64,000 bases of DNA from Escherichia coli (lineage in GTDB: Bacteria; Pseudomonadota; Gammaproteobacteria; Enterobacterales; Enterobacteriaceae): the NCBI RefSeq assembly GCF_022846255.1, contig NZ_AP025682.1; one strand, given 5' to 3'. The position numbers and the translations under genes are program-made. The notes beneath the pieces were generated by a model. That model was given only the letters and a program-made list of their open reading frames with translations. It was not told the origin of the DNA and ran no database searches. This document shows, in pieces, positions 2,490 to 52,686 of this stretch (position 1 is the first letter of the stretch; each line of letters starts with the position of its first letter).

Positions 2490-2541
2490 CCGAATTTCGA
2501 TTAACGCTCAGTCTCTGACTGAGAAAACTGGAAGCATGCTA

Positions 2542-5268
2542 ATGGCTACAATTCATGTAGACGGCAAAGAATACGAGGTCAACGGAGCGGACAACCTGCT
2601 GGAAGCTTGTCTGTCTCTGGGCCTTGATATTCCTTACTTTTGCTGGCATCCGGCGCTGGGAAGCGTCGGTGCTTGCCGCCAGTGTGCGGTGAAGCAATAC
2701 CAAAACGCGGAAGACACGCGTGGTCGCCTGGTGATGTCCTGTATGACACCGGCTTCCGATGGCACCTTTATTTCCATTGACGACGAAGAAGCGAAACAGT
2801 TCCGTGAAAGCGTGGTCGAGTGGTTAATGACCAACCACCCGCACGACTGTCCGGTATGTGAAGAGGGCGGTAACTGCCATCTTCAGGATATGACGGTGAT
2901 GACCGGACACAGCTTCCGTCGCTACCGTTTCACCAAACGTACCCACCGTAATCAGGATTTGGGGCCATTCATCTCTCACGAAATGAACCGCTGCATCGCC
3001 TGCTACCGCTGCGTGCGTTACTACAAAGATTACGCTGACGGCACGGATCTGGGCGTTTACGGTGCGCACGACAACGTCTACTTCGGTCGCCCGGAAGACG
3101 GTACGCTGGAAAGCGAATTTTCCGGTAACCTGGTCGAAATTTGCCCGACCGGCGTATTCACCGACAAAACGCACTCCGAGCGTTACAACCGTAAATGGGA
3201 TATGCAGTTTGCGCCGAGCATCTGCCAGCAATGTTCCATCGGCTGTAACATCAGCCCCGGCGAGCGTTATGGCGAACTGCGTCGAATCGAAAACCGTTAC
3301 AACGGTACAGTAAACCACTACTTCCTCTGCGACCGTGGTCGTTTCGGTTACGGTTACGTCAACCTGAAAGATCGTCCGCGTCAGCCAGTACAGCGTCGTG
3401 GCGATGATTTCATTACCCTCAATGCCGAACAGGCAATGCAGGGCGCAGCAGATATTCTGCGTCAGTCGAAGAAAGTGATCGGTATTGGTTCTCCGCGTGC
3501 CAGCGTGGAAAGCAACTTTGCGCTGCGTGAGCTGGTGGGCGAAGAAAACTTCTACACCGGTATCGCTCACGGTGAGCAGGAACGTCTGCAACTGGCGCTG
3601 AAAGTGCTGCGTGAAGGCGGCATTTATACGCCGGCACTGCGCGAAATCGAATCTTACGATGCGGTACTGGTGCTGGGCGAAGACGTTACCCAGACCGGTG
3701 CGCGCGTCGCGCTGGCAGTGCGTCAGGCGGTGAAAGGTAAAGCGCGCGAAATGGCGGCAGCACAGAAAGTGGCTGACTGGCAGATTGCGGCAATCCTCAA
3801 CATCGGTCAACGTGCGAAGCATCCGCTGTTTGTTACCAACGTTGATGACACCCGTCTGGATGATATCGCGGCGTGGACTTACCGCGCACCGGTTGAAGAT
3901 CAGGCGCGTTTAGGTTTTGCCATCGCCCATGCGCTGGATAACTCCGCGCCAGCGGTTGACGGGATCGAACCTGAGCTGCAAAGCAAAATCGACGTCATCG
4001 TGCAGGCACTGGCTGGTGCGAAGAAACCGTTGATTATCTCCGGGACGAACGCTGGTAGCGCTGAAGTGATTCAGGCTGCGGCTAACGTGGCGAAAGCCCT
4101 GAAAGGTCGCGGCGCTGACGTCGGTATCACCATGATTGCCCGTTCCGTCAACAGCATGGGGCTGGGCATTATGGGCGGTGGATCGCTTGAAGAAGCGTTA
4201 ACCGAACTGGAAACCGGACGCGCCGACGCGGTGGTGGTGCTGGAAAACGATCTGCATCGTCACGCTTCCGCTACCCGCGTGAATGCTGCGCTGGCTAAAG
4301 CGCCGCTGGTGATGGTGGTTGACCATCAACGCACAGCGATTATGGAAAACGCTCATCTGGTACTTTCCGCCGCCAGCTTTGCTGAAAGCGACGGTACGGT
4401 GATCAACAACGAAGGCCGCGCCCAACGTTTCTTCCAGGTTTACGATCCGGCTTATTACGACAGCCAAACTGTCATGCTGGAAAGCTGGCGCTGGCTGCAC
4501 TCGCTGCATAGCACCCTGCTGAGCCGTGAAGTGGACTGGACGCAGCTCGACCACGTGATTGACGCTGTTGTGGCGAAAATCCCGGAACTGGCAGGTATCA
4601 AAGATGCTGCGCCGGATGCGACATTCCGTATTCGTGGGCAGAAACTGGCCCGTGAACCGCATCGCTATAGTGGTCGTACCGCCATGCGCGCCAATATCAG
4701 CGTTCATGAGCCGCGTCAGCCGCAGGATATTGACACCATGTTCACCTTCTCGATGGAAGGTAACAACCAGCCGACCGCGCACCGTTCGCAAGTGCCGTTT
4801 GCCTGGGCACCAGGCTGGAACTCCCCGCAGGCGTGGAACAAATTCCAGGACGAAGTGGGCGGCAAACTGCGTTTTGGCGATCCGGGCGTGCGTCTGTTTG
4901 AAACCAGCGAAAACGGTCTGGATTACTTCACCAGCGTACCGGCACGCTTCCAGCCGCAGGACGGGAAATGGCGTATCGCGCCGTACTACCACCTGTTTGG
5001 CAGCGATGAATTGTCACAGCGTGCTCCGGTCTTCCAGAGCCGTATGCCGCAGCCGTACATCAAACTCAACCCAGCGGATGCCGCGAAGTTGGGTGTGAAC
5101 GCAGGTACACGCGTCTCCTTTAGTTACGATGGCAACACGGTCACGCTGCCGGTTGAAATCGCCGAAGGGCTGACAGCAGGGCAGGTGGGCTTGCCGATGG
5201 GTATGTCCGGCATTGCTCCGGTGCTGGCTGGCGCGCATCTTGAGGATCTCAAGGAGGCACAACAATGA
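2542..5268 (+). CDS. nuoG: NADH-quinone oxidoreductase subunit G
   Basis: ORF 2536..5268; second in-frame ATG at 2542 gives [13 protein letters not shown] and 908 aa; N-terminal ferredoxin-like Cys motifs; molybdopterin-oxidoreductase-like C-terminus. Confidence 0.92.
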
Positions 5269-49716: not shown

Positions 49717-49725
49717 ATCTCAATA

Positions 49726-52011
49726 TCAGATCTTACATGCGCCGCTTTCGCAGCCATCGTCCTGGATTGACGGCACCAGATCGTCTTGTGCGTCTTCAGC
49801 ACCGTCACGGGTGTTCTGATAATACAGCGTTTTGACCCCGAATTTGTAGGCGGTGAGCAGGTCTTTCAGCAGTTGCTGCATCGGCACTTTTCCTGACGGG
49901 AAGCGTGACGGATCGTAGTTGGTGTTAGCAGAGATCGACTGATCGATAAATTTCTGCATGATACCCACCAGTTGCAGGTAGCCATCGTTACCCGGCATTT
50001 CCCACAGCAGTTCATAGGCGTCGTGCAGATGCTCGTAGTCCGGCACCACCTGGCGCAGAATACCGTCTTTCGACGCTTTGATGCTGACGTAACCACGCGG
50101 CGGTTCAATACCGTTAGTGGCGTTAGAGATCTGCGAAGAGGTCTCGGACGGCATCAGGGCAGAAAGCGTGGAGTTACGCAGGCCGTGCGTTTTGATTGAC
50201 TCACGCAGTGCTTCCCAGTCGTAATGCAGCGGCTCATTAGCGATGGCATCCAGATCTTTCTTATAGGTATCGATCGGCAGGATCCCTTTCGCGTAAGTGG
50301 TTTCGTTAAACCACGGGCACGCCCCTTGCTCTTTCGCCAGCTCATTAGACGCTTTCAGCAGGTAATACTGAATGGCTTCGAAGGTTTTATGCGTCAGGTT
50401 GTTGGCGCTGCCGTCGGAGTAGCGTTTACCATGCTTCGCCAGGTAGTAAGCGAAGTTGATCACACCAATACCCAGCGTACGACGACCCATCGCTCCACGT
50501 TTGGCGGCCGGGATCGGGTAATCCTGATAATCCAGCAGCGCGTCGAGTGCGCGTACTGCCAGAATTGCCAGCTCTTCCAGTTCATCCAGGCTGTTAATTG
50601 CGCCCAGGTTGAAAGCAGACAGCGTACACAGCGCGATTTCACCGTTCTCGTCGTTGACGTCGTTCAGCGGTTTGGTCGGCAGGGCGATTTCCAGGCACAG
50701 GTTAGACTGGCGCACTGGCGCGATGGCCGGATCAAACGGGCTATGGGTATTGCAGTGGTCAACGTTCTGAATATAGATACGACCGGTAGATGCACGTTCC
50801 TGCATCATCAGCGAGAACAGCTCAACGGCTTTCACACGCTGCTTGCGGATGCTGTCGTCTTTCTCATATTTGGTGTACAGGCGTTCAAACTCTTCCTGAT
50901 CGGCGAAGAACGCGTCGTACAGCCCCGGTACGTCGGACGGGCTGAATAGGGTGATATCTTCACCTTTCAGCAGACGGGTATACATCAGTTTGTTGATTTG
51001 TACCCCGTAGTCCATATGACGCACGCGGTTGCCTTCCACCCCACGGTTGTTTTTCAACACCAGCAGGCTTTCCACTTCCAGATGCCACATCGGGTAGAAC
51101 AGTGTTGCCGCACCGCCACGCACACCGCCCTGAGAGCAGGATTTCACCGCTGTCTGGAAATGTTTGTAGAACGGAATACAACCGGTATGGAACGCTTCGC
51201 CACCGCGAATCGGGCTACCCAGCGCACGAATACGCCCGGCGTTGATGCCGATCCCGGCACGCTGGGAAACGTATTTAACAATCGCGCTGGAGGTGGCGTT
51301 AATGGAATCCAGGCTGTCGCCGCACTCGATCAGCACGCATGAGCTGAACTGACGAGTCGGGGTACGCACGCCGGACATGATTGGCGTCGGCAGCGAAATT
51401 TTAAATGTGGAAACCGCGTCGTAAAAACGCTTCACGTATTGCAGGCGCGTTTCACGCGGGTAGTTCGAGAACAGGCACGCGGCAACCAGAATATAAAGGA
51501 ACTGGGCGCTTTCGTAGATTTCGCCGGTCACGCGGTTCTGTACCAGATATTTGCCTTCCAGCTGCTTAACGGCAGCATAAGAGAAGGTCATATCACGGTC
51601 GTGATCGATAAACGTGTCCATCTGCTTGAACTCTTCTTCCGTGTAGTCTTCCAGCAGATGATTATCGTATTTGCCCATCTCGACCATTTTCACCACATGG
51701 TCGTACAGTGCAGGCGGCTCAAACTGACCGTAGGCTTTTTTACGCAGGTGGAAGATCGCCAGACGTGCGGCGAGATACTGATAATCCGGCGCATCACGGG
51801 AGATCAGGTCTGCGGCAGCCTTGATAATGGTTTCGTGGATGTCAGAGGTCTTGATACCGTCATAAAACTGAATGTGGGAGCGCAGCTCGACCTGGGAAAT
51901 CGAAACGTTATGCAGTCCTTCTGCCGCCCAATCCAGAACGCGATGGATTTTGTCGAGATTGATGCGCTCTGTGCTACCGTCGCGCTTTGTCACCAGCAGA
52001 TTCTGATTCAT
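49726..52011 (-). CDS. nrdA: Ribonucleoside-diphosphate reductase 1 alpha subunit
   Basis: 761 aa [29 protein letters not shown]..., ATP-cone N-terminus. Confidence 0.93.
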
Positions 52012-52074
52012 GTATGTCGTACCTGTTTTTCAATAGCTTCATGCAGACTACCTGTAGTGAGGGAAGCTGCTAAG

Positions 52075-52120
52075 AACACTATATATAGGGGGTATGTTTG
52101 GGATTCACTGCAAGATAGTG
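52075..52120 (-). promoter_or_regulatory. Candidate tandem NrdR boxes in the nrdA promoter
   Basis: two 16-bp imperfect palindromes acactatatatagggg and cactgcaagatagtgt, 64-110 bp upstream of the nrdA ATG. Confidence 0.45.
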
Positions 52121-52152
52121 TGAAACTGGCCCTCTTGCAAGTGCATAACTTT

Positions 52153-52161
52153 GTGGATAAC
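52153..52161 (-). promoter_or_regulatory. DnaA box upstream of nrdA
   Basis: + strand tgtggataa = reverse complement TTATCCACA, exact 9-mer consensus. Confidence 0.6.
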
Positions 52162-52686
52162 TCAGGAAGGAAAAAGTGGCTTCCGCGCACCTTAGGTCAG
52201 ACAAGGTGTCCGGGAAAGTCAATGGGAAGAGAAAAATTTGTTAAAAATAACCGTTCGGTGAATTCTTGAACGGTAAAATAGGATAGGTAAATTGATATAG
52301 ATGGTTTATTAATCTTGTTGCTAATGATTGCCAAAATTGATCTAGGCACAAGTCGTCACATAATCTGATGTATCAGTTGTGGTCAATATATAAGCGAGTG
52401 TAAGCGATTGTTGAGTCGGAAATGGTTGTTTTATATTCGGTTATTGTTAAATACTAAGCCAATTTGTTACTTTTGTATTTATTATAAGAATATTATTTAT
52501 TGCTTTAATTCAGTTTAAATATAACCGATTTACCTTAAAGTTATTAATTTGAATTGTGATGCATCTAAATTAATTATCAGATAATAACAAAATAGTTATT
52601 ACATCAGGGGCAGAATTTACAAAAGAAAAATACCCTATATCGCATAATGCGATTAAATACGCCATCTTATAGAAAATGATGGTTAG

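Follow-up and report, generated by a model that had tools for sequence, protein, structure and literature searches.

Upstream of nrdA, within the 64,000-nucleotide stretch of DNA analysed here (the window), an earlier note had read a promoter region holding an exact DnaA box and two AT-centred palindromes of the kind bound by NrdR, and the question raised by this locus is which of these motifs, and in which combination, control the class Ia ribonucleotide reductase genes. The explanation that we favour, with a probability of about 0.85, is that nrdAp is a weak sigma-70 promoter carrying a double DnaA box at its -35 hexamer, that NrdR acts at two boxes lying beyond the transcription start (box 1 and box 2), and that the historical upstream NrdR box (box 0) is promoter sequence. 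For this we established here how far the sequences are identical and conserved, where the motifs lie and at what spacing, and how often they would arise by chance; DnaA occupancy, NrdR affinities and the transcription start site (TSS) come from publications concerning E. coli K-12. The control elements of E. coli nrdAB are already known and serve as a textbook example, so that nothing below adds to what is known of E. coli; what may be new is confined to a contrast between two promoter layouts across the Enterobacterales.

The nrdAB promoter and leader in a phylogroup B2 allele

Sequence comparison identified the window as E. coli phylogroup B2 DNA. A 901-bp query across the region matched E. 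coli CFT073, Nissle 1917 and ABU 83972 at 100% identity, and the region was found in 5,425 of 5,426 complete E. coli genomes. The nrdA coding sequence (49726..52011, minus strand), encoding the 761-aa alpha subunit of class Ia ribonucleotide reductase, was assigned from the open reading frame list together with 100% identity to the annotated nrdA-nrdB-yfaE of CFT073; nrdB and then yfaE follow downstream, and the CFT073 neighbourhood reads gyrA, ubiG, yfaL (divergent), nrdA, nrdB, yfaE. Given this gene order and the identity to CFT073 and Nissle 1917, positions 52012..52200 are the regulatory region of nrdAB-yfaE (promoter plus 5' leader) in its B2 allele, divergent from yfaL, and the designation of nrdA promoter region made in the earlier note is borne out by the 100% match to CFT073 and Nissle 1917 with their nrdA and yfaL annotations. 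The nrdR gene does not lie within the 64-kb window; E. coli possesses nrdR. Whole-window Rfam and tRNA scans returned no match near the nrdA promoter locus. The sole Rfam match in the window above its gathering score was the nuoG RNA motif (RF01748, 50.3 bits) at 2492..2534 on the plus strand.

The nrdAp of K-12 is the same locus with the same order of elements, and it shares with the window, without any base change, the DnaA boxes, both promoter hexamers, box 0, box 1 and positions 3-16 of box 2. Over the promoter core the two are 96% identical, and all five differences fall outside the DnaA boxes, the -35/-10 hexamers, box 0, box 1 and the box 2 core. Among them, two SNPs fall in the -35/-10 spacer and one in the linker that joins box 1 to box 2; in addition, box 2 begins (positions 1-2) with TC in the window versus GT in K-12, which brings the window one position nearer to consensus. 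Across the intergenic region the alignment identity to K-12 is 94%. In an alignment of nine Escherichia-type sequences (seven from E. coli, E. albertii, and one related metagenome-assembled genome, L014) the DnaA boxes, the -35 hexamer, the -10 hexamer with box 0, and box 1 were invariant, whereas the -35/-10 spacer, the box 1-box 2 linker and the sequence past box 2 varied freely.

A genome-wide table of K-12 transcription starts (Kim 2012) places the nrdA TSS at 2342780, on the final A of the promoter string ...TATCTTGCAGTGA and 107 nt upstream of the ATG, giving a 107-nt leader. Since this start aligns onto an A at 52105 and 13 bp are missing here, we infer that transcription in the window begins at 52105 and that the leader (52012..52105, minus strand) measures 94 nt. 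The missing 13 bp (CGGAAAGAATTCC) are present in K-12, in five other E. coli sequences and in E. albertii, and partially so in L014; alignments put the junction of the deletion at 52030..52031 (minus strand; leader +74/+75), and it is this deletion that cuts the leader from 107 to 94 nt.

The -35 hexamer TTGCAA (52135..52140, minus strand; -35..-30) follows from the K-12 TSS mapping, and the -10 hexamer TATCTT (52112..52117, minus strand; -12..-7) from its place relative to the start and its 17-bp spacing to TTGCAA; both are invariant in the nine sequences. The start lies 7 nt past the -10 hexamer, and both distances are within what is expected of a sigma-70 promoter (16-18 bp and 6-8 nt). Read in the direction of transcription, nrdAp would be a weak sigma-70 promoter running from the -35 at 52140..52135 through the spacer to the -10 at 52117..52112. 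Together the two hexamers agree with consensus at 8 of 12 positions, which fits an activator-dependent promoter and which, being under the threshold of 9/12, is why a generic promoter scan did not list nrdAp. The same generic promoter and terminator scan gave four matches in the AT-rich spacer that separates nrdA from the divergent yfaL (52222..52686, neither strand; 28% G+C; delimited by composition and the yfaL annotation) versus 3.6 expected, which is chance level.

Two further observations concern transcripts and reading frames around this promoter. In K-12 a small open reading frame, ypaB (b4605, 47 aa), runs on the opposite strand over the nrdA promoter; its ATG is CTG in the window (about 52126 onward, plus strand), it is without RefSeq annotation in the B2 genomes listed, and its homologue in phage P7 is ORF Upf91.6, beginning MALLQVHNFVDNSGRKKW. 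This frame may be a by-product of conserved promoter DNA. The K-12 TSS table also holds a separate start 32 nt upstream of nrdB (35 reads; the nrdA-nrdB spacer is at about 49724..49915 in the window), which suggests an internal promoter or a processing site.

Beyond the DnaA boxes, an inverted-repeat search found an imperfect repeat (CTTTCCCGGACACCTT ... AAGGTGCGCGGAAG) at 52177..52221 (minus strand), which is probably the 45-bp inverted repeat already published. The literature places Fis and IciA sites and an AT-rich timing element, at the level of the region, within the nrdA-yfaL spacer. In the stretch from the inverted repeat to the DnaA box lie two conserved sequences, at 52163..52178 and 52198..52213, that correspond to CAGACAAGGTGTCCGG and CACTTTTTCCTTCCTG, reported in 2026 from gSELEX for the LysR-type regulator HusR (YnfL); the second interval is inside the repeat, and the first is just downstream and overlaps it by two bases.

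A double DnaA box against the -35 hexamer

The exact consensus DnaA box that had been noted at 52153..52161 does exist as TTATCCACA, but its true place is 52152..52160 (minus strand; -55..-47), the former interval reading GTTATCCAC. It is invariant in E. coli, E. albertii and L014, and has support from K-12 ChIP-seq. Three bp downstream of it on the same strand we found a second box, TTATGCACT (52140..52148, minus strand; -43..-35), with two mismatches to consensus, which shares its last base with the start of the -35 hexamer. The pair therefore has the form of a double box, in which the second member stands 2-3 bp away in the same orientation, and occupies -55..-35 relative to the TSS transferred from K-12.

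A lone 9-mer would carry little weight. The window holds a single exact copy of TTATCCACA, 0.30 copies being expected, and 28 of 100 shuffles contained at least one, while the relaxed pattern TTWTNCACA was found 8 times versus 5.3 expected, which is not above chance. It is only the pairing, position and conservation of the site that lift it above chance. By a loose rule just one other double box occurs in the window, inside yfaL (53322..53342), where two copies of TTATCCGTA lie 12 bp apart start to start in coding sequence; this pair may reflect a coding repeat.

In K-12, DnaA ChIP-seq detected a peak upstream of nrdA with 14-fold enrichment over the double box gTTATCCACAaagTTATGCACTt, to which DnaA binds cooperatively and where mutating either box disrupts binding. 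The 23-nt double box of the window is identical to this string. The DnaA box proposed in the earlier note is thus a documented in vivo target of DnaA in K-12, at identical sequence, and from that identity DnaA occupancy would be expected to hold for the window allele as well. The cell-cycle control that the same note had attributed to this box fares less well, as a review of the literature holds that DnaA sets the level of nrdAB expression and apparently not its timing.

Sitting directly against the -35 hexamer, the double box TTATCCACA-aag-TTATGCACT (-55..-35) would be placed to act on RNA polymerase, which bound DnaA-ADP, or low DnaA-ATP, is reported to stabilise, whereas high DnaA-ATP is reported to repress (review). 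Ribonucleotide reductase would in this way be made in an amount coupled to the state of the initiator of replication, DnaA. Double DnaA boxes at polA, purH, mioC, DARS1/2 and datA resemble that of nrdA in combining a consensus 9-mer with a weaker one at a distance of 2-3 bp in the same orientation. In the nrdA pair, however, the consensus box stands upstream of the weaker one, which runs into the -35 hexamer, whereas at most of the other sites listed by ChIP-seq the consensus box is downstream.

Box 1 and its partner in the NrdR operator

NrdR boxes were scored against the 16-bp consensus acaCwAtATaTwGtgt, the key positions (C4, A6, A8, T9, T11 and G13) being those of a 2026 preprint; the same preprint reports that NrdR needs two boxes and that the linker between them matters by length alone, and the operator rule applied here was two boxes with a linker of 15-16 bp. 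The boxes described below lie upstream of nrdA-nrdB-yfaE. Box 1 (52076..52091, minus strand; +15..+30; ACACTATATATAGGGG on the plus strand and CCCCTATATATAGTGT on the minus strand) agrees with consensus at 14/16 positions, the six key ones (6/6) among them, is AT-centred and 12/16 self-complementary, and is the only 14/16 match in 64 kb, where chance alone would supply 0.48 boxes with up to 3 mismatches to consensus. A palindrome previously noted at 52075..52090 is therefore a genuine NrdR box, but in that register only 8/16 positions are self-complementary, and the true register is the one given above. An equivalent box 1 with 6/6 key positions was present in 77 of the 80 upstream regions scored (these are described below), and two of the other three were one key position short. 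In gel shifts, mutating box 1 abolishes NrdR binding, as restated by Rozman Grinberg et al. (FEBS J 2025).

Two boxes compete to be the partner of box 1. The first is the historical upstream NrdR box, TCACACTATCTTGCAG (52108..52123, minus strand; -18..-3), which together with box 1 makes up the pair annotated in 2005-2007 and which Rozman Grinberg et al. (2025) renamed 'box 0'. In the register of the literature it is AT-centred, matches consensus at 10/16 positions and 5/6 key positions (position 6 being C), and overlaps the -10 hexamer; 27 positions in the window score as well. A second palindrome had earlier been placed at 52105..52120, and an NrdR-like box is indeed present there, but as a 16-mer this interval is not AT-centred and is only 2/16 self-complementary, the symmetric element being a 15-mer, CACT-N7-AGTG, at 52106..52120. 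Taken as an NrdR site it is box 0, which the K-12 binding data given below reject. As noted, the two palindromes would be 30 bp apart centre to centre with a 14-bp linker, outside the 15-16-bp rule; in the literature register the linker between box 0 and box 1 is 16 bp (32 bp centre to centre).

The second candidate, missed by the earlier note, is box 2, TCACTACAGGTAGTCT (52045..52060, minus strand; +46..+61), which matches consensus at 11/16 positions and 5/6 key positions (position 9 being G) and lies 15 bp from box 1, a linker that agrees with the 15-16-bp rule; only 7 window positions score as well. The background per position is 1.1e-4 for the score of box 2 and 4.2e-4 for that of box 0, so that over the four allowed partner positions around box 1 the chance of such a match is about 4 x 1.1e-4 and 4 x 4.2e-4, respectively. 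Either partner is unlikely by chance, and sequence alone does not decide between them.

Comparison of genomes provides box 2 with a modest conservation footprint. E. coli, E. albertii and L014 share its core ACTAC..GT.G in spite of a divergent linker, and within the alignment the core ACTAC, T11 and G13 are constant and positions 1-2 and the centre variable; in E. albertii the central AG has become TT and the box still holds 5/6 key positions. This comparative support extends over Escherichia and one metagenome-assembled genome, Hafnia keeping only the half-site ACACTAC.

What separates the two candidates is binding. In microscale thermophoresis on K-12 fragments with ATP and dATP, E. coli NrdR bound a fragment carrying box 1 and box 2 with a KD of 113 nM, and one carrying box 0 and box 1 with a KD above 6000 nM (> 6 uM), and earlier gel shifts, restated in the same work, were unaffected by mutation of box 0 (Rozman Grinberg et al. 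2025). On the strength of these affinities and of the gel-shift result, and as part of the explanation favoured above, the functional NrdR operator is very probably box 1 plus box 2, box 0 not being its working half. The window differs from the tested K-12 57-mer at three positions, all of them non-key (one in the linker, and box 2 positions 1-2), and NrdR is likely, by this comparison, to bind the window allele also. The operators of nrdHIEF and nrdDG resemble that of nrdAB in having two 16-bp boxes with a 15-bp linker and in their affinities (KD 138 and 160 nM versus 113 nM for nrdAB). They differ from it in that box 2 of nrdAB has a non-canonical AG centre and that no part of the nrdAB operator lies upstream of the transcription start.

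Both boxes would thereby be situated in the initially transcribed region, and NrdR binding there would lower transcription when dATP is plentiful. A protein bound past +1 would be expected to block promoter escape or elongation and not the binding of polymerase. Box 0 would be part of the promoter with a likeness to NrdR boxes, and may be what is left of an ancestral one.

The alternative with the best claim to attention, unlikely as we consider it, is the classical arrangement, in which box 0 (over the -10 hexamer) and box 1 form the operator and NrdR occludes RNA polymerase. To the acceptable 16-bp linker and above-chance score of box 0 can be added that it is invariant in the nine Escherichia-type sequences, its conservation within Escherichia being as strong as that of box 1, that an equivalent box is near-invariant in 73 other species (see below), that mutating the box at this position raised nrdAB expression in a Salmonella study, and that in 2025 the preprint of a different group went on counting the classical pair for nrdAB. 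On the other hand, the measured KD makes this pair 40-50 times weaker than the other E. coli ribonucleotide reductase operators, and gel shifts that box 1 mutation abolishes are indifferent to mutation of box 0. Its key position 6 is C and not A, and the 2026 preprint found that restoring A (C6A) raises affinity tenfold, this one base explaining much of the weakness of box 0. The 14-bp linker of the register first noted breaks the spacing rule, and because box 0 contains the -10 hexamer and abuts the TSS its conservation is inseparable from a promoter role. Nevertheless, an in vivo role for box 0 is possible in view of its conservation in Escherichia, its equivalent in the 73 species and the effect of the Salmonella mutation.

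It is highly improbable that the palindromes act at the level of RNA, the transcribed box 1 and box 2 forming leader hairpins that control translation or mRNA stability. Both boxes do lie inside the 94-nt leader, but direct binding of NrdR to DNA is documented; this candidate was rejected because the leader fold is no better than that of shuffled sequences (-15.1 kcal/mol versus a shuffled mean of -14.4, z = -0.25) and an Rfam search of the leader at E-values up to 1 gave no match. That the motifs are functionless chance matches is hardly credible at all, for while one TTATCCACA in 64 kb and one NrdR box within three mismatches are unremarkable at the expected rates given above, the double DnaA box abuts the -35 hexamer and has the same sequence as a site bound in ChIP-seq, Escherichia sequences keep the motifs unchanged although the linkers beside them vary, conservation of box 1 reaches about 80 species, and published binding measurements contradict this reading.

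Two nrdA promoter layouts and copies on mobile DNA

We compared 80 loci with close NrdA relatives from species-representative genomes, anchoring their upstream regions on box 1. Box 1 was found in essentially all 80, and the remainder of the upstream region follows one of two designs. Among these loci the E. coli design, with DnaA boxes upstream of the -35 hexamer and a partner box 2 downstream of box 1, is seen only in E. coli, E. albertii, the metagenome-assembled L014 and Hafnia (L082), the last of which belongs to a distant family and yet has the E. coli-type layout. The other design was present in 73 of the 80 upstream regions, including those of Salmonella (L007), Citrobacter, Klebsiella (L039), Enterobacter, Kosakonia, Buttiauxella, Pantoea and Erwinia (loci within L005-L081, about 130 to 40 nt upstream of nrdA, comparable to window positions 52040..52165). 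It consists, in order, of a conserved CTTGTA...TAGAAT promoter (whose start is predicted), directly after it a near-invariant ACTCACCATATAGCGT at the position of box 0, a 16-bp linker and box 1; in the leader, TTATCCACA-nnn-TTAGTCACA comes right after box 1, followed a few bases on by an inverted TGTGGATAA.

From its sequence and place, ACTCACCATATAGCGT is the likely NrdR partner of box 1 in these 73 species. Their promoters differ from that of E. coli in the -35 and -10 elements, which lie about 12 bp further upstream relative to box 1, and their upstream regions showed no DnaA box upstream of the -35 hexamer and no E. coli-like box 2. At most of these loci ubiG is the gene upstream of nrdA, versus yfaL in E. 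coli. A strict link of the E. coli-type promoter to the yfaL insertion was ruled out, as two loci with a yfaL-like gene (L052 and L058) keep the other design. In the published literature that we searched no description of this two-layout contrast was found, and a figure of the Salmonella study mentioned above marks DnaA boxes.

The upstream half of the E. coli promoter, about -159..-10, is also found on P1-family phages. Searching with the promoter core gave partial matches on 217 E. coli plasmid records, P1-like phage-plasmids, and in all 217-245 phage-plasmid records carry the copy. In P7 (L084, 1440..1560) and SJ46 the copy extends over 150 bp at 91% identity to window positions 52264..52115, and in P1 (L085) over 115 bp at 83% identity to this stretch; plasmid pAPSLC-111K (L083) has a copy at 2501..2542. 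The phage copy shares with the window the inverted repeat, the double DnaA box, the -35 hexamer and the spacer. Its similarity to the window stops near the -10 hexamer and TSS, it is without NrdR boxes 1 and 2 and without nrdA, and it adjoins hot and small open reading frames of unknown function. In GenBank (M95666, NC_005856) it is annotated as an 'nrdA-like promoter' with a 'dnaA box'. A separate case is PLSDB record NZ_CP051662.1 (148 kb, labelled plasmid), which at 80585..80785 has a 100% full-length copy of a 201-bp nrdA promoter query and could be explained by a piece of chromosome carried on a plasmid, or by an error of assembly or labelling.

Although speculative, and to us more doubtful than probable, it is conceivable that the nrdAB region of E. 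coli is a lineage-restricted mosaic and not the usual enterobacterial arrangement, recombination, possibly with mobile DNA, having replaced the ancestral promoter half. DnaA, which had repressed from a downstream site, would thereby have come to activate from upstream, the old box 0 would have become a -10 element, and NrdR would have been forced onto a new box 2.

For annotation, these results amount to two corrections: the DnaA site of nrdA should be entered as a double box, and the NrdR operator of nrdAB at +15..+61 (box 1 plus box 2) and not over the -10 hexamer. The contrast in layout cautions against carrying the E. coli model of DnaA at nrdAB over to Salmonella or Klebsiella. In E. coli, the nrdAB region couples the supply of DNA precursors both to the initiator DnaA and to the balance of dATP and ATP, which NrdR senses.
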